A stretch of DNA of 64,000 nucleotides. Source: an uncultured Chloroflexia bacterium. GTDB lineage: Bacteria; Chloroflexota; Limnocylindria; Limnocylindrales; CSP1-4. The position numbers and the translations under genes are program-made. Each line of letters opens with the position of its first letter. Position 1 is the first letter of the stretch. Positions 27,748 to 36,930 of the stretch are shown here, one piece after another. The DNA is taken from assembly GCA_963813335.1 (NCBI GenBank), contig CAWEYL010000001.1, positions 1,184,001 through 1,248,000 of the forward strand, given 5' to 3'. A model generated the notes under the pieces. It saw nothing but the letters and a program-made list of their open reading frames with translations. It did not search any database and was not told where the DNA came from.

Positions 27748-28734
27748 TCAGCCCGAGCGGCCGGCGGTCTCGGCCAGCGCCGCGGGGAGGCCGACGGCGA
27801 GCGATCGCGGGTCGAAGCCCAGCTCGGCGGCGGCGCGGGCCGCCGATGCCCAGTACGTCACGCCGACGGACGCGCTGACGATCTCGCGCAGGTTCGGCGA
27901 CAGTCCGAACCACGCCCCGCGGTCCGGGAAGAGGAAGGCGCCGATCCGCAGCGGAAGGTCCGGGATCTCCAGGCGCGGCAGGCGGTGCCCGCCGGCCTTG
28001 GCCGCGATCCGCAGCGCGTCGCGGATGCGCACGGTGTCCCCACCCAGGACGTAGCTGCGACCCGTGACGCCCCGGTCGAGCGCGGCGAGGATCCCGCGAG
28101 CGAGGTCCGCGACGTGGACGAACCCGATCCCCACCCCGCCCAGCCCGACGAACGGGAGCGTCCCGGCATACGCCTGCGCGAGCTGGTCGCCGACGGGCGT
28201 GTGGTCGCCGGGCCCGTAGACCTGCGACGGCATGACGATGAGGGCCGGCGCGCCGTCCGCGATGCGGCGCTCCACCTCGACGTGCGCGCGCCACTTGGTC
28301 TCGTCGTACCAGCTCAGGAAGCCGTCGGCCGGGTCGCGCCGGTACGTCTCGTCCACGACCGATCCGCGGGTGTTGCCGAAGACGTTGACCGTCGAGACAT
28401 AGACGATCCGAGGGATCCGGCTCGCCAGAGCCGCGTCGAGCGTCCGGACCGCGGTCCCCACGTTCGCATCCTCCATCGCGGGGCGCTCGGACGCCGCGAT
28501 CCCGACCCGGTACGAGCCGGCGCCATGGATCAGCGCGTCCGCGCCGGCCAGGGCGGCCGCGATCGCGGCAGGATCCGTCAGGTCGTTCGCGACGAGCGTC
28601 AGGCCGGGCGCTGCCGCCAGCCTCGGGCTCGCCGGGTCCCGCACGAGCGCGAGCACCTCGTCCCCGCGGGCGAGGAGCCGGCGGACGACCGCGCCACCGA
28701 CGAACCCCCCGCCGCCCGTGACCGCGACGCGCAT
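27748..28734 (-). CDS. NAD-dependent epimerase/dehydratase (extended SDR)
   Basis: VTGGGGFVG Rossmann motif, YDETK (YxxxK), VYGPGD. Confidence 0.9.
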
Positions 28735-30108
28735 CAGTAGACGGGCGTGTCGGTCCCGACCGCTTCGAGCGCCGCCTTGATCACCCGCAGGAACGCCGCG
28801 GCCTGGGCGCCGTCGTTGGCCCGATGGTCGATGGCGAGGACCATGTTCATGACGGGCCGGATCGCGATGACGTCGCCATCGGGCGTCTCGCGGACGACGG
28901 GGCGCTTGGTGATGGCCTCCATCGTCAGGATGGCGACCTCGGGCACATTGATGATCGGCATCGTCAGGTTCGAGCCGAACCAGCCGGTGTTGTCGATGGT
29001 GAACGTGCTGCCGCCGTAGTCGTCGAGGCGGAGCTTGCCGGCGCGGGCGCGGGCCGCGACATCGGCGATGGCGTGGTTGAGGCCGTTGATGGAGAGCTGG
29101 TCGACGTCCCGCACCACCGGCACGAGCAGCCCGTCGTCCACCGCGACGGCCACGCCCATGTTGATGCGCCGCTTGGCCAGGATGCCCAGCGTCGGTCCAG
29201 TGGGCGTTGAACGTCGGGTACTGCTTGAGGGCGTCGACCGTGGCCTTGATCACGAACGGGACGAAGCTCAGCGAGAGGCCCTCGCGGGACTGGTAGTCGC
29301 GCTTCGCCGCCTCGCGCGCCCGCACGAGCCCGCTGGCATCGACCTCCATGTGGACGTAGGCGTGCGGGACCAGGAGCGCGCGCGTCATCTGGGCGGCGAT
29401 GCCCTTGCGCATCTGGGTCATCGGCAGGAGGAGCTCGTCCGTGCCGGGCGGGAAGGCGATCGCGCCACCGGCCGGTGCGGTCGCCTTCGGCGCGGCGACG
29501 GGGGCCGCAGCAGCGGCGGGCCGGCCGTTCGTGGCGGGCGTCGGCGCCGCGCCGCCGGTCCGGATGGTCTCGACCACGGCCAGGACATCGTCGCGGGTGA
29601 TCCGGCCGCCGCCGCCCGTGCCGGGGACCTGCTCAGGGCTGAGCCCGTGCTCGCGGAGGAGCCGCCGGACCGCTGGGGTCATGCGGGCGTCGGCGTCGCC
29701 GGTCGCGGCGAGCGTCGCCGCCGCGGCGAGGGGCGCCGGGGCCGGGACGACAGGCGCGGGGGCGGGCGCGGCGGTCGCCGCGACCGGCCGCTCGTCGGAT
29801 CCGGCGGGGCCGTGGGCCGGCTCCGGCGCGGTGGCTGCCGGCGCTGCGGTGGCTGCCGGCGCACCCGCCTCGTCGCCGGTGTCGATGATCGCGATCTCGG
29901 CCTCGTTGGGGACGGTCTCGCCCTCCTGGACCAGGATCTCCTTGAGGATGCCCTCGAACGGCGACGGGACCTCGGCGTTCACCTTGTCGGTGATGACCTC
30001 GAGCAGCGGCTCGTACTTGTCGACGTGGTCGCCGGGCTGCTTGAGCCATTTGCCGATCGTGCCCTCGGCGACGCTCTCGCCGAGCTGGGGCATCGTTACC
30101 TTGGCCAC
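28734..30108 (-). CDS. bkdB: 2-oxoacid dehydrogenase E2, dihydrolipoamide acyltransferase (branched-chain type); one frameshift near 29186
   Basis: Lipoyl domain MPQLGES…TDKV, E3-binding TPAVRRL…GTGGGGRIT, catalytic DHRANDG; extra base in a C run. Confidence 0.9.
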
Positions 30109-30268
30109 GTTCGCTGGTCCTCCGAGTCGCGCGATCCGATCGAGGCCTCACGCCCCGGTCGTCCGCGTAGTGTCGCCCATCCGGGCATCCGCGGTCGAGC
30201 CGCCGCGGGGTGACGGCCCGTCCGGCCAGCGGGCATGATGCGCCGATGCACGTGGCGCGGGTCCCGGC

Positions 30269-33238
30269 ATGACGCGCTGGGGACGGACGATCGGGATCCG
30301 ACCCGGCGAGGGGCGGACGATCGTGCTCGTCGCATCGCTCTTCGCCGCCCTGGAGCTGGGCCGCGGCTTCGGGGAGATCGGCGTCGATACGCTCGTCGTC
30401 AAGCGCTTCGGGGCCGGCTCGCTGCCCTACCTGTTCATCGGGCTCGGGAGCGTCAGCCTCGTTGCCTCGCTCGTCTACGGCGGGGCGCTCGGCCGGCTGC
30501 CGAGGATCCGGCTCTTCAGCGGGATCATGATCGGGGCCGCCATCGCGTTGGTCGTCGAGCGGGTCCTCATCGAGACCGGGCACCCCGCGACGCTGGCCCT
30601 CGCCTATCTGACGGTCTATGCCGTCGGCGCTATCGCGGTGACGATCGTCTGGACGATGGCCGCATCGGTCTTCGACGCCCGCCAGGCCAAGCGGCTCTTC
30701 CCGCTGTGCACCGCCGCGGCGATCGCCGGCAGCTTCTTTGGCACGCTCCTGTCCGGCCCGACGGCGCGGGCACTCGGAACGCCGGCGCTGCTCGTCATCG
30801 AGGCGGTGCTGCTGACCGCGGTCGGGCTGCTGGTCGTGGCGGTCTCGCGGACGACCACCGTCCGGGTCCCGCCGCGCGGGCGCGACCGGTCGATCGTCGC
30901 CGACCTGCGCGCCGGCTTCGACGCGGTCGTCCGCTCGCCGCTGATGCGCCTCGTGGCGGTGGCGTACGTGCTGCTGGCGATCCTCGGGTCGTCCGTCACC
31001 TACCCGTTCCTGCGCGTCGCGTCCGAGACGTTCACGACGGAGGCCGACCTCGCGACCGCGCTCGGCCTCCTGTCGGCGAGCGTGACCGCGACCTCGTTCG
31101 TGGTCTCGCTGCTGGTCGCCAACCGCGTCTACGCGCGGATCGGCGTCGCCGGCGCGGCCATGGTCCTGCCGCTGGTCTACCTCGGCGGGTTCGGCTTGTG
31201 GATCGTGGCGTTCTCGATGGCCACCGCCGCCCTCTTCCGGTTCACGCAGCAGACCGCGCAGCGCGGCCTCTCGAACGCGGCCTGGAGCGCCTTCTACAAC
31301 GTCGTGCCGTCCGAGCGCCGCGCGCAGGTCCTCGCCTTCAACGACGGTGTGCCCGGGCAGGTCGGGACGATCCTCTCGGGCGTCCTGCTGATCGCGGCCG
31401 GCTCCGTCCTGGCCCGCGACCAGGTCTTCTGGCTGGGCGCCGTCACCGCGGTCGCCTGCACGGTGGTCGGCGTCGGGATCCGGCGGCGCTACGGGGCGAG
31501 CCTGCTGCAGACCCTGCGGGCCGGGCTCGGGGAGCAGGTCCTCGAAGGCGGCCCGGGCCTGGCCGCGCTCACCCGCGATCCCGCCGTCGCCGGCGCGCTC
31601 GTCACTGCGCTCGGCGCGCCGGAGCCGGGCGTGCGCCGGATGGCCGCGTCGCTGCTCGGCCGGACCGCAGCGACGGACGCCGGGGCGGCGCTTGCCGGCG
31701 CGGCGGCGGACGAGGACGCCGGGGTCCGGGTCGCCGCCCTGGGCGCCATCGCGGCCCTCGGCGGTGACGGGCTGGTGGCGGAAGCCGTCCGCGGCCGCCT
31801 GGCCGATTCGGAGCCGGCGGTCCGCGCGGCCGCCGTGCGGGCGTTGACGGCGATCGCCGTGCTCGCCGACGACCCGGCGGGCGCCGTGCCCGCGGTCACC
31901 GGCCTGGCCGACGACCACGACCCGGCGGTCCGCGCGGCGGTGGCCTGCTCGATGCTGGCGGCGGGACCGGACGAGACCTCCCTGCGGATCATCGACGAGC
32001 TGCTCGATGACCCCGACGACGACTGCCGGGTGGCGGGTCTCGACGCCATCCGCCGGGTGGGCGACCCGATACCGCTCGAGCGGGTGCGCGCGCTGCTCGG
32101 CGACCGTGCCGCGAAGGTCCGGGTCGCCGCGCTCGAGGCGTTGGCGGTGTCGCACGACGTCGGTGCGACGGTCCCCGACCTGGTCGCGGCGCTCGACGAC
32201 CCGGTCTCGGACGTCCGGATCGCGGCGGCCCGCATCCTGGCGGCCTTCGAGACCGCACCACCCGGCGTGGTCGAGGTCCTGGCCACCGATTCCGAGCGGG
32301 CGCAGGCGGCCGCGCTGGCGGCCCTGGTCGGCCACGGTCCCGAGGTGCGCACACCGGTCATCGACTGGGCCCGCGGCCGGCTGACCCGGGCCAACGACCT
32401 GCGGCGCGCACGGCTCGCGCTGTCGACCGGGGGGACCGAAGCCTCCGGCGACGCCGCCGCGACGCCGGAGACCGCCTTCCTGGTGTCGATCCTCGAGCAC
32501 CGCGAGCACGACCTCGCCAACCTGGCCCTCGGCGCCCTCGTCGTGCTCGGCGCGCCCGAGGCCGGCGGGGTGATCCGCCGCTGCCTCCGCTCGCGCGACA
32601 CGGAGACCCGGGCACAGGCCATCGAGGCCCTCGAGTCCATCGGCGACCCGCGGCTGAGCGGCGCCCTCGTGGGGCTGCTCGAGGACGCGCCGGCCGCGCC
32701 GCAGGACCGCGCTGACGCCCTGCGCTGGCTGGCCGATGATGATGACCACTGGATCGCGCGGATGGCGCGCACCATCTCGAGTGGAGGCGCGGACATGCCG
32801 GAGACGAGTCGGACGCTCGGCGACCTCGAGACGATGCTGTGCCTGCGCCGCGTGCCCCTGTTCGATGGGCTCGACCCGGAGGACCTCCAGCGGATCGCCT
32901 CGACCGCCGTCGAGCACGTCTACCCGGCCGGCGAGGCGCTCGTCCGGGAGGGCGACCTGGGCGACACGCTGATCGTGATCGTGGAGGGGTCCGTGCGCGT
33001 CGTGCGGGCCGAGCCCGACGGCTCCGAACGGCTCATCCGCACCTACGCCGCCGGCGACCATATCGGCGAGCTCGCGGTGCTCCGCGAGGCCCCGCGCGCG
33101 GCGACGGTCGTCGCCGAGGGCGACGGGGTCCGCGGGCTGGTCATCGCCGGGGACAGCCTCAAGGCGATCCTGCGCGAGCGGCCCGACGCCGCGATGGCCA
33201 TGCTCGCGACGCTCTCGGAGCGGATCAGCAGGCAATAG
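30269..33238 (+). CDS. NTT/TLC-like (MFS-fold) transporter fused to HEAT repeats and a C-terminal cNMP-binding domain
   Basis: About 12 TM helices with FDARQAKRLFPL, repeated D..VR.AA..AL HEAT units, LRRVPLF…REGD…GELAVL…PRAATV cNMP fold. Confidence 0.9.
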   Translation: MTRWGRTIGIRPGEGRTIVLVASLFAALELGRGFGEIGVDTLVVKRFGAGSLPYLFIGLGSVSLVASLVYGGALGRLPRIRLFSGIMIGAAIALVVERVLIETGHPATLALAYLTVYAVGAIAVTIVWTMAASVFDARQAKRLFPLCTAAAIAGSFFGTLLSGPTARALGTPALLVIEAVLLTAVGLLVVAVSRTTTVRVPPRGRDRSIVADLRAGFDAVVRSPLMRLVAVAYVLLAILGSSVTYPFLRVASETFTTEADLATALGLLSASVTATSFVVSLLVANRVYARIGVAGAAMVLPLVYLGGFGLWIVAFSMATAALFRFTQQTAQRGLSNAAWSAFYNVVPSERRAQVLAFNDGVPGQVGTILSGVLLIAAGSVLARDQVFWLGAVTAVACTVVGVGIRRRYGASLLQTLRAGLGEQVLEGGPGLAALTRDPAVAGALVTALGAPEPGVRRMAASLLGRTAATDAGAALAGAAADEDAGVRVAALGAIAALGGDGLVAEAVRGRLADSEPAVRAAAVRALTAIAVLADDPAGAVPAVTGLADDHDPAVRAAVACSMLAAGPDETSLRIIDELLDDPDDDCRVAGLDAIRRVGDPIPLERVRALLGDRAAKVRVAALEALAVSHDVGATVPDLVAALDDPVSDVRIAAARILAAFETAPPGVVEVLATDSERAQAAALAALVGHGPEVRTPVIDWARGRLTRANDLRRARLALSTGGTEASGDAAATPETAFLVSILEHREHDLANLALGALVVLGAPEAGGVIRRCLRSRDTETRAQAIEALESIGDPRLSGALVGLLEDAPAAPQDRADALRWLADDDDHWIARMARTISSGGADMPETSRTLGDLETMLCLRRVPLFDGLDPEDLQRIASTAVEHVYPAGEALVREGDLGDTLIVIVEGSVRVVRAEPDGSERLIRTYAAGDHIGELAVLREAPRAATVVAEGDGVRGLVIAGDSLKAILRERPDAAMAMLATLSERISRQ

Positions 33239-33247
33239 CATTCGTCG

Positions 33248-35953
33248 ATGACCGAGACCGCAGGCTCCGGCGATCCCGAGGCGCGAGGCCCGCTGCCTGT
33301 CGGCACGGTCACCTTCCTGCGCACCGACATCGAGGGCTCGATGGCCCTCGCGCGTGCGCTGGGGCCGACGTGGGACGCGGTCAACGCCGCCCACATGAGC
33401 ATCCTGCGAGGTGCCGTGGGGCGGCATGACGGTGTCGTCGTTCGGACCGAAGGCGATGCCATGTTCGCGGTCTTCCCGGAGGCCGGCGCGGCCGTCCGGG
33501 CGGCCGTCGACGCGCAGCGGGCGATCGGATCCCACGGCTGGCCGGCTGCGTCCCCCGTCCGGGTCCGGATCGGCCTCCACAGCGGCGAGGCCCACCTCGC
33601 CGGCGACGACTACGGCGGGTTCGACGTCAATCGTGCGGCTCGGATCGCTGCGGTCGGGCACGGTGGCCAGATCGTCCTCTCGGGGCCGACCTTCGAGCTC
33701 GTCGCCGACCGGCTCCCACCCGCGACGGCCACTCGGCCCCTGGGCAGATTCGTCCTGAAGGACGTCATCCGGCCCGAATCGCTCTACCAGCTCGACATCG
33801 ACGGTCTCCCCACGGCGTTCCCCGCCCTCCGGGCCGGCCGCGTCGTCGAAGGGAACCTCGGCCAGCGACTGACGAGCTTCGTCGGGCGCGATCGGGAACT
33901 CGAGGCGCTTCGTCACCTCCTTGAGCGGGCGCGCCTCGTGACCCTGACGGGGCCGGGCGGGATCGGGAAGACGACCCTCGCCACCGAGGTTGCCCGATCC
34001 GTCGAGGACGGCTACGCCGACGGGGCCTGGGTGGTGCCGCTGGCCTCCATCGATTCGAGCGATGGGGTGGCGCCCCTGATCGCGCGGACCATCGGCCTGT
34101 TCGACGGGCCGTTCCGTCTCGCGGTCGACACCCTTCCGATCTTCCTCGCCGACCGGGCCATGCTCCTCGTGCTCGACAACTTCGAACACGTCATCGACGC
34201 CGCCGATGTCGTCGGACGGCTGCTCCAGGCCTCGCCGCATTCGCGATTCATCGCGACCAGCCGCGCCCCGCTGCACATCTCCGGCGAGCACGAGTACCCC
34301 GTCGGGCCGCTGGCGGTCGGCGGCGTGGACGATGCCGCGGTCCGGCTCTTCGTCGATCGCGCGCAGGCGGTCCAGCCGGGTTGGACGCCAGGCACCGAGA
34401 CGTCCGTGGTCGAGGAGATCGTGACCCGGCTCGACGGCCTGCCGCTCGGCGTCGAGCTGGCCGCGGCTCGCGTTTCCCTGCTCCCGCTCCAGGCGATCCG
34501 GGACCGGCTCGCCGCGCGTCTGCCATTGCCTGGGGCGGGCGCCCGCGACGCGCCAGCCCGCCAGCGGACCCTCGATGGCGCCGTCGCCTGGAGCCACGAC
34601 CTCCTGACGCCGGATCTCCAGACCCGCCTCCATCGCCTGTCGGTCTTCGAGGGCGGGTTCGACCTTGCCGAGGCCGGGCCGGTCGCCCTCGACCCAGCTG
34701 AGCGATCGCGGGAGGTCCTCGACGACCTCGCCGAGCTCGTGGACCGGAGCCTCCTGCAACGCGTGCCGGAGGCCGCCGGGGTCCGCTTCCGGATGCTCCA
34801 GACGATCCAGGCCTTCGGCGCGGCGCGGCTGGCCGAGACCGATGACGAGGCGCCCGTCCGTCGCCGCCATGCCGAGACCTACCTTGCCCTCGCCGAGGCC
34901 GTGAAGGCGCACGAGGACGGGGCCGACCAGCGGGCCTGGAGGGCCAGACTTGATCGCGACGACGCCAATCTACGCGCGGCGATCGACTGGTCGATCGAGC
35001 ACGGAGAGGTGGACCTGGCGCTCCGGTTCGTCGGCGCGTCGTGGCGGTATTGGCAGTCGAGCGGCCATCTCAACGAAGGCCGGGCCCTCGCCGACCGTGC
35101 GCTCGCGATACCCGGCGCCGATGCGCCGACGACCGCGCGGATGTGGGCCGCCTCGGCCGCCGGGAGCATCGCCTACTGGCGGTCGGATTCGGCGAGCGCT
35201 GGTCGCTGGTACGAAGAGGAGTTGTCGCTGGCACGGGCGCTCGGCGACGGGGCCGGGCTCGCGGACGCGCTGTTCAACCTCGGCCATGTCGACTTCGTGC
35301 TCAACGCTCCGAGGGGCGATGCGTTCCGAGGAGGGATCGAGGAGACCGTCCGCGCATATGAGGCGGTGGGCGACGAGCGCGGCGTCGCCCGGACGCGCTG
35401 GGCGGTCGGGAACGTCCTCCTCGAGGGTGGTGACCCAGCCGCCGCGTACCAGGCCTTCATCGAGTCACGCGCGTCGTTCGAGGCACTCGGCGACGTCAGG
35501 TACGTCGCCCTATCGTCCGGAAGCCTTGCGTGGACGTCGTTCGCCCTCGGCGACATCCCCGGATCCTTCCGCTGGACCGCGCATGCGATCCGCGAGACGT
35601 ATTCCGGTGGCGACCTCGGCTCGACCACCATCTCGCTCCACATCGGCGTGCTGATCGCGGTCATCGCGGGCCGCCCGGATGAGGCCGCGCGCATCTCGGG
35701 GGCGTTCGACGCGCTGTGCGAACGGTATGGGGTGCGCCCGCCCGCCGCGTTGGAGCGCTTCCTGCATGTCCAGGACCCGTTCGCCATGGCACGGGATGCC
35801 CTGTCACCGGAGCGCTACGCCATCGAATACGCGGTCGGCCAGCGCATGTCCCTGGCCGAGGCCGTCGACCTGGTGGTCGAGCTCGCATCCACGACCGAGC
35901 CCGCGATAGCTGGCGGACCGCCGAGCGCCGGCGGCTCCCCGTCTCGTCAGTAG
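33248..35953 (+). CDS. Class III adenylate/guanylate cyclase - STAND (NB-ARC-like) ATPase - TPR protein
   Basis: TFLRTDIEGS, TEGDA, RIGLHSG, VNRAARI cyclase motifs; GPGGIGKT, LLVLDNFE, GLPLGVELAA; helical repeat C-terminus. Confidence 0.92.
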   Translation: MTETAGSGDPEARGPLPVGTVTFLRTDIEGSMALARALGPTWDAVNAAHMSILRGAVGRHDGVVVRTEGDAMFAVFPEAGAAVRAAVDAQRAIGSHGWPAASPVRVRIGLHSGEAHLAGDDYGGFDVNRAARIAAVGHGGQIVLSGPTFELVADRLPPATATRPLGRFVLKDVIRPESLYQLDIDGLPTAFPALRAGRVVEGNLGQRLTSFVGRDRELEALRHLLERARLVTLTGPGGIGKTTLATEVARSVEDGYADGAWVVPLASIDSSDGVAPLIARTIGLFDGPFRLAVDTLPIFLADRAMLLVLDNFEHVIDAADVVGRLLQASPHSRFIATSRAPLHISGEHEYPVGPLAVGGVDDAAVRLFVDRAQAVQPGWTPGTETSVVEEIVTRLDGLPLGVELAAARVSLLPLQAIRDRLAARLPLPGAGARDAPARQRTLDGAVAWSHDLLTPDLQTRLHRLSVFEGGFDLAEAGPVALDPAERSREVLDDLAELVDRSLLQRVPEAAGVRFRMLQTIQAFGAARLAETDDEAPVRRRHAETYLALAEAVKAHEDGADQRAWRARLDRDDANLRAAIDWSIEHGEVDLALRFVGASWRYWQSSGHLNEGRALADRALAIPGADAPTTARMWAASAAGSIAYWRSDSASAGRWYEEELSLARALGDGAGLADALFNLGHVDFVLNAPRGDAFRGGIEETVRAYEAVGDERGVARTRWAVGNVLLEGGDPAAAYQAFIESRASFEALGDVRYVALSSGSLAWTSFALGDIPGSFRWTAHAIRETYSGGDLGSTTISLHIGVLIAVIAGRPDEAARISGAFDALCERYGVRPPAALERFLHVQDPFAMARDALSPERYAIEYAVGQRMSLAEAVDLVVELASTTEPAIAGGPPSAGGSPSRQ

Positions 35954-36930
35954 GCCGCGAGCTTGCGGATCCCCGCGGCGATCTTCTCGGGGTCGACCAT
36001 GAACCAGTCCTCCAGGACGTGGTTGTAGGGCACCCCAGGGACCTCCGGGCCGGCGATCCGGGTCACCGGGCCGTCGAGGTAGTCGAACGCCTCCTCGGCC
36101 ACGATCGCGGCCACCTCCGCCCCGTACCCGCCGAACTTGTTGTCCTCGTAGACGATCAGGCACTTGCCGGTCTTGCGGACGCTGTCGAGGAGGGTCTCGC
36201 GGTCGAGCGGGCGCAGCGTGCGCAGGTCGATGACCTCGACGCTGATGCCGTCCTCGGCCACGCGGTCGGCGGCCTCGAGCGCGTAGTGGGCCATCAGCCC
36301 GTAGGCCACGACCGTCACCTGCGATCCGGGGTGGGTCACGGCGGCCTTGCCGAGGGGCACGACATAGTCCGTGTCGGGGACGTCGCCGCGGACCGAGCGG
36401 TACATCTTCTTGTGCTCGAAGAACAGCACCGGGTCGTCGTCGCGGATCGCCGAGCGGAGCAGGCCGCGGGCGTCGTACGGCGTGGACGGCACGACCACCT
36501 TGAGGCCGGGCACGTGGGTGAAGAACGCCTCGACGCTCTGCGAGTGGTAGAGCGCGCCGTGCACCCCGCCGCCGTACGGGGCGCGGATCGTCATCGGGAC
36601 GCTGTACCCGTTGTTCGAGCGGTAGCGCATCCGCGCGGCCTCGGACACGATCTGGTTGAACGCCGGATGGATGAAGTCGGCGAATTGGATCTCGGCGACC
36701 GGCCGGAGGCCGTTGACGGCGGCCCCGATCGACGCGCCGACGATCATCGACTCGGTCAGCGGCGTGTCGATGACCCGTTCCTCGCCGAACTCGGCCCACA
36801 GGCCGTCCGTGGCGAGGAAGACCCCGCCCTTCTTGCCGACGTCCTCGCCGAGGACGATGACCGAGTCGTCGCGGCGCATCTCCTCGGCGAGCGTCTCGCG
36901 GATGGCGTCGATGAACGTCCGGGTGGGCAT
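35947..36930 (-). CDS. bkdA2: 2-oxoacid dehydrogenase E1 beta subunit (branched-chain type)
   Basis: GEDVGKKGGVF, DTPLTE, EIQFADF, HSQS, FEHK, IDLRTL motifs. Confidence 0.93.
   Translation of the reverse strand: MPTRTFIDAIRETLAEEMRRDDSVIVLGEDVGKKGGVFLATDGLWAEFGEERVIDTPLTESMIVGASIGAAVNGLRPVAEIQFADFIHPAFNQIVSEAARMRYRSNNGYSVPMTIRAPYGGGVHGALYHSQSVEAFFTHVPGLKVVVPSTPYDARGLLRSAIRDDDPVLFFEHKKMYRSVRGDVPDTDYVVPLGKAAVTHPGSQVTVVAYGLMAHYALEAADRVAEDGISVEVIDLRTLRPLDRETLLDSVRKTGKCLIVYEDNKFGGYGAEVAAIVAEEAFDYLDGPVTRIAGPEVPGVPYNHVLEDWFMVDPEKIAAGIRKLAAY

Follow-up and report, generated by a model that had tools for sequence, protein, structure and literature searches.

The question raised by this locus is whether two adjacent genes, one encoding a membrane carrier that ends in a domain binding cyclic nucleotides (cNBD) and the other a cyclase fused to a STAND receptor, form a single signaling unit, and if so which messenger joins them and what is controlled. 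The genes lie in a window of 64,000 nt, the whole stretch of DNA that was analysed, from a host described as a soil bacterium. The preliminary description recognized two co-oriented genes 9 nt apart, and both open reading frames were recovered at the same positions in the following arrangement.

28734..30108, minus strand: 2-oxoacid dehydrogenase E2 gene, which flanks the insertion site on the left and has one inserted base in this assembly
30109..30268: 160-nt spacer from which E2 (minus) and A (plus) start divergently
30269..33238, plus strand: gene A, NTT-HEAT-cNBD protein, 989 aa (ORF call, Pfam, AlphaFold model, fold search)
30269..31513, plus strand: A residues 1-415, 12-helix NTT/MFS-fold membrane domain (model, fold and profile searches)
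31526..32818, plus strand: A residues about 420-850, HEAT-repeat solenoid, the most variable portion of A (Pfam, comparison of relatives)
32915..33178, plus strand: A residues 883-970, cyclic-nucleotide-binding domain with phosphate-binding cassette G933-E934-L935-A936...P942-R943-A944
33239..33247, plus strand: 9-nt spacer from the A stop to the B start
33248..35953, plus strand: gene B, class III cyclase-STAND (NB-ARC/AAA_16)-TPR protein, 901 aa
33302..33703, plus strand: B residues 19-152, class III cyclase domain (D27/D70 metal, N128/R132 transition state, R66/D121 base specificity)
33878..34465, plus strand: B residues 211-406, STAND NTPase (Walker A K241, Walker B D310, sensor R339, GLPL-like DGLPL motif)
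35015..35902, plus strand: B residues about 590-885, TPR sensor region with divergent alleles in close relatives
35947..36930, minus strand: 2-oxoacid dehydrogenase E1-beta gene, flanking on the right and sharing 7 nt at its end with the B end

The GC content of A and B (73-76%) is the same as that of the flanks and matches the genome, and a horizontal island by composition was rejected. Long reading frames on the opposite strand (e.g. 29633-34912) were set aside as high-GC shadows, being disfavoured by a codon-position gene caller. No sigma-70-type consensus was found in the 160-nt spacer between E2 and A, and the promoter and terminator scan was empty, a result that is uninformative at 74% GC.

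The three-part architecture proposed earlier for A, an NTT/TLC-like carrier of about 12 transmembrane helices with HEAT repeats and a cNMP-binding domain, is upheld by Pfam, structure prediction and fold search. Pfam matches comprise HEAT_2 in four stretches, cNMP_binding at residues 883-970 (E 4e-20) and a weak MFS_1; Pfam TLC matches relatives of A in its clade and not A itself, and across the bacterium's own genome it matched nothing, as did the control. A profile of A relatives searched against the PDB reached E<0.001 only for the NTT structures 9j3j and 9j3n, and E 9e-30 when the profile was widened. In the AlphaFold model residues 1-415 form 12 long helices and one linker helix (pLDDT 81), for which the best fold match is AtNTT1 9j3m (Z 38.1, rmsd 2.9, 406 aligned), followed by 9j3l (Z 35.5) and CpNTT1 9j3n (Z 30.4), with other MFS carriers at Z 28.9 or below. 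The model and searches thus support an NTT ancestry for A.

Ancestry is accompanied by loss of the residues that AtNTT1 needs for ATP/ADP exchange. In the profile alignment to 9j3j/9j3n, A has no equivalents of AtNTT1 K155, E245, E385 and K527. The four columns were inspected in 63 close and 75 wider sequences, and among the 63 they read F, Y or I at position 56, never E at 117, never E (one D) at 244, and T, I or M at 367; the residue offset of 84 was checked by hand on E245, E385 and K527, and K155, placed via the CpNTT1 segment, is the weakest of the four assignments. K155 and K527 are needed for binding of ADP and ATP and E245 for translocation, according to the available text of PMC3306366. 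Since all four residues are missing, ATP efflux is unsupported, as is the initial proposal of nucleotide efflux or ATP-ADP energy signaling, and by its residues the carrier probably moves something other than ATP/ADP. The polar residues E29, R32, E36, Q331, R332, N336 and D359 are invariant in the close clade, and the invariant cavity residues of the close clade are not conserved across the wider clade, so that subclades may move different solutes, or none. A mono-phosphate such as cAMP or an NMP is a possible cargo of A.

The cNBD is the most strongly conserved portion of A, and its best PDB matches are the PKA/PKG domains. The cassette G/E/L/A and Arg are present in 70 of 70 A cNBDs, and the residue after the cassette Arg is Ala in 46, Val in 18, Ile in 5 and Ser in 1, never Thr. 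As a rule derived from PKA and PKG, cGMP-selective cNBDs carry Thr at this position. Judged by these residues, the binding cassette of A is of the cAMP type.

Protein B matches Guanylate_cyc (19-152), AAA_16/NB-ARC (211-406) and TPR_12, and the Pfam search detected no HTH family at its C-terminus. The motifs TDIEGS (D27), EGDA (D70), VNRAAR (N128, R132) and RTEGD (R66), together with Walker A GPGGIGKT (K241) and Walker B LVLDNFEH (D310), were located as first described for a class III cyclase with both metal-binding Asp residues and the N..R pair, joined to a STAND module and TPRs and lacking a DNA-binding domain. Among 46 full-length orthologues D27, D70 and R132 are invariant (46/46 each), N128 is kept in 40/46, and the STAND switch residues K241 and D310 are each kept in 46/46. 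Walker A, Walker B, a sensor Arg, a GxP-type motif and a C-terminal repeat sensor place B among the STAND NTPases; a sequence search for solved structures related to its STAND-TPR portion returned no STAND protein, only GPSM2-type TPRs.

The preliminary description read the R-T-E-G-D motif correctly, but its verdict that the product is uncertain overlooked D121, which is invariant (46/46). R66 and D121 align with K101 and D157 of the adenylyl cyclase Ma1120, and position 66 is Arg in 43 orthologues, Lys in 1 and Gly in 2, never the guanylyl-type Glu. In the structure of a GTP-shifted Ma1120 mutant, 5d0g, these two sites hold E and G (PMC4215837); the available text of that paper describes no K101R mutant, and Arg at the first of these sites would be a putative substitute for Lys. 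Because R66 and invariant D121 align with the adenine-specifying Lys/Asp pair and the binding cassette of A is cAMP-type, cAMP is the likely predicted product of B. A complex prediction for A 640-989 with two B cyclase domains scored 0.00 and gave no answer, speaking neither for nor against binding.

Several lines of evidence from gene neighborhoods join the two proteins. A is carried by 15 of 36 congeneric genomes and is adjoined by B sequence in 15/15. Across GTDB, B follows A in 72/75 loci, the exceptions being one locus that stops at a contig end (L068), one with only a cyclase fragment (L109) and one with no B (L097), and the pair is located between E1-beta and E2 in 69/75; A and B also stand together outside this site (L037, L038, L079, L111, L116). 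In a carrier tree of 44 rows, built only from sequences gathered in this analysis, the carrier clade inside which the partner is replaced holds 35 rows with SH-aLRT 100. Where distant metagenome loci extend 4 kb or more upstream, 18/20 have the carrier adjoined by a Zn-ribbon-cyclase-AAA_16-MalT-TPR gene (12 upstream, 2 downstream) or a B-type gene (1 upstream, 3 divergent). A DUF2652 gene lies beside the carrier at 7/13 sister-family loci and 3/4 Anaerolineae-type loci, and a further 5/13 sister-family loci have an upstream Ser/Thr kinase instead of a cyclase. No cyclase was found at the carrier loci L134, L192 and L224, and more distant Chloroflexota NTT-HEAT loci have a nearby cyclase in only 3/16. 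Recurrent third genes at carrier loci encode small-ligand domains (START-like, SnoaL).

DUF2652 was earlier predicted to be a class III cyclase (in PMC4886424, as far as its available text goes). Its model matches the adenylyl cyclase CyaC in Foldseek (E 1e-9, TM 0.68-0.73 to target) and it retains the D/D/N/R catalytic residues; the likeness emerged only by fold search, as a PDB sequence search gave CyaC at E 0.31 and the profile-profile comparison with the B cyclase was weak (probability 5.8, E 0.0065). Two singleton metagenome proteins, P0188 (2154 aa) and P0209 (2129 aa), carry NTT-HEAT-cNBD-cyclase-AAA_16-TPR in a single chain and are 47% identical, linker included. A search of long proteins for further fused forms, a weak test, gave P0209 only, and a scan of metagenome contigs did not find its coding DNA; all that speaks against an assembly artefact is that the proteins come from two independent sources and have the linker in common. 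The background against which these neighborhoods are read is 14 cyclase or DUF2652 genes in 2.54 Mb, about 7% per 12 kb, a rate taken from the bacterium's own genome only and applied to loci that are kin rather than independent. In that genome 4/5 cNBD genes adjoin a cyclase gene, the others in the company of ordinary partners; like the small-ligand third genes, this points away from defence.

The neighborhood survey, through the 72/75 linked loci, the replacement of partners and the fused forms, bears out the early proposal of a coupled cyclase and cNMP-reader unit. As judged from these genome comparisons, the coupling of A and B is real, and a carrier clade that in many related bacteria keeps a cyclase of three unrelated kinds alongside, fused in two proteins, is likely to be a messenger-controlled transporter.

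With the architecture, the intact catalytic, switch and binding residues, the NTT fold, the loss of ATP/ADP residues, the linkage, the partner replacement and the fusion as the observed steps, we favour, at a probability of roughly 0.5, a conserved writer/reader pair in which a ligand-switched cAMP relay gates a small-solute carrier whose cargo is probably not ATP/ADP. The STAND-TPR half of B would detect a small ligand or stress cue, and ligand-driven STAND oligomerisation, expected by family analogy with MalT, would bring cyclase domains together as active dimers. The cAMP predicted from the Arg/Asp pair would then bind the C-terminal domain of A, as the Ala/Val/Ile after the cassette Arg suggests, and binding would be relayed via the HEAT solenoid to the membrane carrier, gating it. 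The transported substrate would be a small solute, imported or exported; the role would be physiological, in metabolite or chemical-stress responses, rather than anti-phage.

The most serious alternative, although we consider it unlikely, is an anti-phage or anti-parasite system with Pycsar/Avs logic, in which the TPRs sense an invader protein, a cAMP burst follows, A leaks a metabolite or depolarises the cell, and an arms race drives the exchange of sensor and effector alleles. The pair is patchy, being present in 15 of the 36 congeneric genomes, with the E1-beta/E2 site empty in G031 and occupied by other genes in G008. Among 22 close genome pairs, with lipA and E2 DNA at least 90% identical, identity falls to background in the B WHD in 7/20 and in its first TPR region in 7/18, and in the neighboring epimerase in 0/8. 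In the three nearest genomes the thyX-locus paralogue is 84-90% identical in all regions, whereas the STAND-TPR of B is 52-65% identical in two of them; by this comparison the sensor half of B is replaced between close relatives while that of the paralogue is not. Of four sister groups in the A tree, chosen after both trees had been inspected, the B alignment rejects three (p-AU 8e-5, 1e-3 and 2e-6; 0.29 for the fourth). A is 94-98% identical between L114 and L117 where the B TPRs are 40-50% identical, and conversely the B NTPase is 91% identical between L090 and L101 where the A membrane domain is 57% identical.

Patchy presence and sensor swapping fit defence equally well or better than the cAMP-gated carrier reading, which is why defence stays a rival, and a preprint (10.64898/2026.08.12.744502) predicts, in its available text, an immune clade made up of cyclases joined to STANDs of the NACHT and AP-ATPase kinds. 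Against defence, PADLOC run on 100 neighboring proteins, drawn from 24 distant and 12 close loci, gave only domain cross-hits and one candidate PDC-S01, with no defence neighbors, and B has no PycC profile match at E<=0.01. The site is fixed and has housekeeping flanks, those of a 2-oxoacid dehydrogenase cluster, other cargo there is glyoxalase, cupin, PEBP and response regulator, and GC content equals that of the genome. The predicted cAMP, in a cell with 11 other cyclase-type genes, would be ill suited to triggering a lethal effector, the DUF2652-START partners found elsewhere in the carrier clade resemble small-ligand sensors, and defence and non-defence STAND clades are interspersed (PMC13581612, available text). 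What keeps the earlier defence idea as a rival is the patchiness and sensor swapping, and not a defence island or a PycC match. In a fuller form, held with slightly less confidence still and doubtful as a whole, an NLR-like receptor with an exchangeable sensor would make cAMP for an NTT carrier that, having lost ATP/ADP exchange, is repurposed as a cAMP-gated effector in an undescribed nucleotide-messenger system of immune or non-self recognition, receptor and effector alleles being shuffled independently at a fixed core-metabolic site and its clade having recruited three unrelated cyclase families.

Direct contact offers a less probable route, in which A would act as a transceptor, its transport state governing B by way of the HEAT solenoid, the cNBD is only a feedback brake and cAMP serves other receptors. 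MalK sequesters the STAND protein MalT while its transporter idles (PMC10427625, available text), HEAT repeats are protein-binding scaffolds, the fusions hold the carrier and cyclase halves together, the carrier is without canonical substrate residues, and a kinase replaces the cyclase beside some clade members. Independent exchange of A and B alleles, which makes a diffusible messenger a likelier link than allele-matched protein contact, and three unrelated partner families are nevertheless hard to square with specific contact; the cNBD is also the best-conserved part of A.

It is more improbable again that A translocates ATP/ADP or NTPs under cAMP regulation, for energy signaling or nucleotide exchange, as was speculated for the family in 2017; no fold matches better than NTT, relatives are labelled 'ATP/ADP translocase' in the sources, conserved R32 and R332 could bind a phosphate, and natural NTTs vary at some of the four residue sites (PMC10654386, available text), but all four residues are missing in the 63 close sequences. 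Neighborhood through common insertion history alone, without functional coupling, is very improbable and largely refuted, for although most close loci derive from a single E1-beta/E2 insertion and cyclase-STAND genes occur in 36/36 genomes of the genus, the partner is swapped for other cyclase families, which lie upstream, downstream or divergently or are fused, and the pair is intact away from that site.

Free-living bacteria widely carry NTT-HEAT(-cNBD) proteins, which are uncharacterised, and the 2017 description went no further than speculation on cAMP control. A clade with its own neighboring, swappable and once fused cyclase provides a defined input, messenger and receiver that two genes could reconstitute in E. 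coli. Given the ATP/ADP residue loss, databases probably mislabel this carrier clade as 'ATP/ADP translocase'. If the cAMP-relay reading is true, this would be a rare STAND receptor that controls a transporter post-translationally via a second messenger; if instead phage pressure lies behind the sensor swapping, the pair would make up a new defence system in which cAMP is the messenger and a secondary carrier the effector.

Cyclase-STAND-TPR proteins of Actinomycetota and Chloroflexota include the mycobacterial cyclase-NB-ARC-LuxR (mclx, Rv0386-like) family. B shares with them the class III cyclase, NB-ARC-type STAND and TPRs, an architecture found in many ESM Atlas clusters, but differs in having no C-terminal DNA-binding domain, an Arg/Asp specificity pair, a dedicated neighboring cNBD-carrier and an exchanged sensor half. 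With canonical NTT/TLC proteins (AtNTT1 9j3j/9j3l/9j3m, CpNTT1 9j3n) A shares its best fold match and the loop motif after helix 4, but is only 15-16% identical, does not keep the four ATP/ADP residues and has the extra HEAT and cNBD. An NTT-fold 12-helix domain, then HEAT repeats, then a C-terminal cNBD make A by architecture one of the NTT-HEAT-cNBD fusions of Major, Embley and Williams (2017, PMC5381601), whose monophyletic NTT-HEAT clade may include it, with which it shares architecture and fold and for which cAMP binding by the cNBD and tuning of transport were already speculated; the available text has no linked cyclase, fused form or residue analysis, whereas here a cyclase partner and ATP/ADP residue loss are found. 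Both components are already published, and the carrier-cyclase pairing was not found in open-access PMC and bioRxiv literature.

The writer/reader logic of two genes, one for a class III cyclase and one for a membrane protein that bears a cNBD, is shared with Pycsar/Pucsar as presented in the available text of 10.64898/2026.08.12.744502. B differs in being without a PycC match, STAND-fused and adenine-type in its residues, with no defence island at A/B, and A is a 12-helix NTT carrier with HEAT repeats rather than a TIR or small TM effector; PADLOC matches on A span only the cNBD (869-987) and the HEAT portion, and Pfam detected no TIR. Avs/NLR-like STAND receptors (PMC13581612) have in common with B the STAND-TPR, an N-terminal enzymatic output and a variable sensor, but B is predicted to put out a second messenger for a separate carrier to read, and the word 'cyclase' is absent from the main text and 7 supplements of that paper that were searched. 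A non-immune counterpart in logic is E. coli MalT-MalK (available text of PMC10427625), in which a ligand-sensing STAND protein is likewise tied to a transporter; MalT has transcription as its output and is held by an ABC subunit, whereas here the output is predicted to be cAMP and the carrier its predicted receiver.

The preliminary description of two co-oriented genes 9 nt apart holds, with both genes on the plus strand.

Features of the A-B pair (window positions; domains by Pfam)
30269–33238, plus strand: A, NTT-HEAT-cNBD carrier gene, 989 aa
A residues 883–970: cNMP-binding domain (cNBD); HEAT repeats also present
33248–35953, plus strand: B, class III cyclase-STAND-TPR gene, 901 aa
B residues 19–152: class III cyclase domain
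B residues 211–406: AAA_16/NB-ARC; TPRs also present

The motifs quoted in that description are all in place, and Pfam agrees that B carries only cyclase, AAA_16/NB-ARC and TPRs, with no DNA-binding family. The Pfam TLC family does not match A, so its nucleotide-transporter (NTT) ancestry was tested by a separate route. Searched against the PDB, a profile from 13 close A relatives matches the two NTT proteins and nothing else, a wider profile matches them at E 9e-30, and an AlphaFold model of residues 1–415 (pLDDT 81) finds AtNTT1 (9j3m) as its best fold match (Z 38.1, rmsd 2.9, 406 aligned), ahead of CpNTT1 (Z 30.4) and other MFS carriers (Z 28.9 or less). These matches bear out the NTT-like carrier.

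A-B lies between the 2-oxoacid dehydrogenase genes E1-beta and E2, on the strand opposite to that cluster and with GC content resembling its flanks. E2 (28734–30108, minus strand) has one extra base at about 29160–29200 relative to three close relatives and is split between two reading frames; the assembly is likely wrong at a short homopolymer there. A occurs in 15/36 congeneric genomes and in 0/24 from another family in the order, one with small genomes (many are incomplete), and in 5/18 genomes at least 90% complete, own genome counted. All 15 congeners with A show the order A, B sequence, E1-beta, with frameshifts in several assemblies and deletions in two. The preliminary description depended on linkage of the two architectures in other genomes, and B follows A in 72 of 75 A loci from a GTDB scan that overlaps the 15; the exceptions are one at a contig end, one with a cyclase fragment and one without B. 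The E1-beta/E2 site holds A in 69 of the 75. Of five A-less genomes checked for the site, four gave a match to E1-beta: in G031 it directly adjoins E2, in G008 the site is taken up by five other small genes, in G023 it holds a short spacer, and in G004 the contig ends there. Paralogues resembling B are present in 36/36 congeners, so B alone is ordinary.

Individual loci vary. Internal deletions in L064 (=L031) and L102 (=L028) take the cNBD of A and the cyclase of B together, leaving carrier and TPR end; L109 has a cyclase fragment only, and L080, L125 and L130 carry a tandem pair of cyclase-STAND genes downstream of the carrier. L103, L111 and L113 are titled Anaerolineaceae, Actinomycetota and Saccharimonadales; mislabelling or misbinning is probable for L103 and L113, which show the E2/E1-beta context, whereas L111 lacks that context and may be a real transfer.

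Coupling of A and B exceeds one inherited insertion. Carrier matches occur in 83/301 genomes class-wide (a tally including five flagged unpublished, used for no other claim) and in 41/401 of a phylum draw. Among 13 fetched loci of a sister family (~35% identity), seven have the cyclase-like DUF2652 (five directly upstream, one convergent, one about 3 kb off), five an upstream Ser/Thr kinase, and one, on a short contig, nothing; DUF2652 is also directly upstream in 3/4 of the closest loci from other classes. In DUF2652 the D/D/N/R set is intact and the fold resembles adenylyl cyclase CyaC; the accessible text of PMC4886424 predicts it to be a class III cyclase and leaves an NTT neighbour unlisted. 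The best 80 of 566 metagenome loci include 57 distant ones; with 37 set aside for less than 4 kb upstream (partner visible in five), 18 of the remaining 20, many of them close kin and two near duplicates, have a neighbouring cyclase-STAND gene, 14 of the Zn-ribbon/AAA_16/MalT-TPR family and four of B's, placed upstream, downstream or divergently. In the genome that holds the window, genes for a cyclase or DUF2652 number 14 over 2.54 Mb, a background of about 7% for each 12 kb, though other genomes may be richer. A profile search of 1.84 billion representatives gave 7,734 matches, and the best 150 include two proteins above 2,100 aa that join NTT-HEAT-cNBD-cyclase-AAA_16-TPR in a single chain. 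The two come from separate sources, and their 47% identity extends through the linker. In a quick-search tree of 44 carrier domains, with outer rows on long branches, all partner types fall within one 35-row clade (SH-aLRT 100). Outside it a cyclase is near only 3/16 Chloroflexota loci, so the cyclase-partner rule is limited to this clade rather than the whole family.

Other neighbours recur. The kinase replacing the cyclase in one subclade (L040, L042, L043, L044, L049) has a multi-pass membrane C-terminus. A small SnoaL-like gene, possibly a ligand-binding third component, separates cyclase-STAND and carrier genes in L173, L178, L183, L211 and L212, 2–6 nt from the carrier start in all but L183. 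At L176, L185, L187 and L189 the carrier gene borders on a gene cluster encoding a response-regulator/thioredoxin-reductase fusion, a cNBD-histidine kinase and a CoA-binding protein. In a sister family, most genomes conserve a short NTT-like gene (about 490 aa; L053, L054, L055) within an operon that also encodes histidine kinases, HD-GYP-type regulators and a VTC/CYTH-domain protein. PLP-dependent decarboxylase-cNBD and MFS-cNBD fusions (L047:839-4264) lie near a DUF2652/NTT-HEAT-cNBD pair, and a START-like/DUF5939/cyclase gene (L139:4397-6499) is divergent from a split NTT-HEAT and cNBD pair; START-like domain plus cyclase recurs independently of DUF2652.

Across 46 full-length B sequences, D27, D70, R132, K241 and D310 never vary, and 40 of the sequences retain N128. 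R66 and D121 align with K101 and D157 of Ma1120, the closest solved cyclase, which specify ATP according to the available text of PMC4215837; the GTP-shifted mutant 5d0g has E and G there. Since D121 is present in 46/46 and R66 in 43/46 (Lys once, Glu never), the product, called uncertain in the preliminary description, is likely cAMP. MalT is an established case of a STAND protein activated by ligand and oligomerisation (PMC10427625). Oligomerisation of B's STAND would presumably dimerise its cyclase domains.

The cassette G-E-L-A...R is invariant in 70 A cNBDs and is followed by A, V, I or S, never Thr; Thr after the cassette Arg is typical of cGMP-selective domains. AtNTT1 requires K155, E245, E385 and K527 (available text of PMC3306366 and PMC10654386). 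The last three align with A Y117, T244 and T367 (chain offset 84), K155 falls at about L55/F56, and none of the four is kept in 63 close A sequences. Residues E29, R32, E36, Q331, R332, N336 and D359 hardly vary within the close clade, a constancy that does not extend to 75 wider sequences. Given this loss and retention, we read A as a carrier still selected for a specific, charged, smaller solute that would differ between subclades. ATP/ADP exchange is unlikely, which leaves the nucleotide efflux or energy role proposed earlier unsupported; the residues leave room for cAMP or an NMP as possible cargo.

A and B are also exchanged independently. DNA identity to L058 is 74–89% across A, 59–74% across B and 93% at E1-beta; to L056 it stays at 72–84% across B. 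The A tree conflicts with that of B's STAND region, and three of four A-tree sister groups, named after both trees had been seen, are rejected on the B alignment. Among 22 close pairs from 24 loci, not independent and representing about five separate events, identity is at background level in 7/20 for the B WHD and 7/18 for its first TPR block, versus 1/21 for the A membrane domain and 0/8 for a neighbouring epimerase. In L114/L117, A is 94–98% identical while B falls from 91% (cyclase) to 40–50% (TPRs); L090/L101 show the reverse. The thyX-locus paralogue, a small control, is 84–90% identical in every region across the three nearest genomes. Independent exchange argues that a messenger, not a matched surface, links the partners, and that B's sensor is pressed to vary.

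From sequence, a physiological cAMP relay that gates the carrier has slightly better than even odds (about 0.52). Linkage, partner replacement and fusion support the coupling of cyclase and carrier proposed earlier; absence of the AtNTT1 residues makes ATP/ADP an unlikely cargo. That A-B is instead a defence system seems doubtful: its presence is patchy, sensor exchange is specific to this locus, and a 2026 preprint (10.64898/2026.08.12.744502, accessible text) predicts an immune clade of STAND-fused cyclases, but the flanks are core genes, the same E1-beta/E2 site takes ordinary cargo, B has no PycC match, and the only plausible defence gene among 100 neighbours is one candidate, PDC-S01. Also against defence, the predicted messenger is a housekeeping one in a cell with many cyclases, small-ligand domains (START-like, SnoaL) recur beside the carrier, and similar local cyclase/cNBD pairing occurs elsewhere in the genome, where 4/5 cNBD genes found adjoin a cyclase. 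A transceptor acting on B is a still slimmer prospect, and nucleotide-triphosphate exchange, with the AtNTT1-required residues absent, is very improbable. That A and B sit together without coupling hardly merits consideration.

Two further loci of the same genome were recorded. A second cyclase-STAND-TPR gene, next to thyX (L035:7881-13142, G000 C3), has Ser rather than Asp at the second specificity position and is accompanied by a pair of divergent, stand-alone cNBD genes plus an FAD oxidoreductase; at G000 C1:1041972-1045398 a Zn-ribbon-cyclase-STAND gene is closely followed by a cNBD gene.

A search of open-access PMC and bioRxiv texts turned up no account of the pairing, the partner replacement, the fusion or the residue loss. 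Each part, NTT-HEAT-cNBD and cyclase-STAND-TPR, is already known. A shares the architecture of the NTT-HEAT-cNBD proteins in PMC5381601, whose accessible text speculates on cAMP control and names no linked cyclase, whereas here the cyclase is linked.
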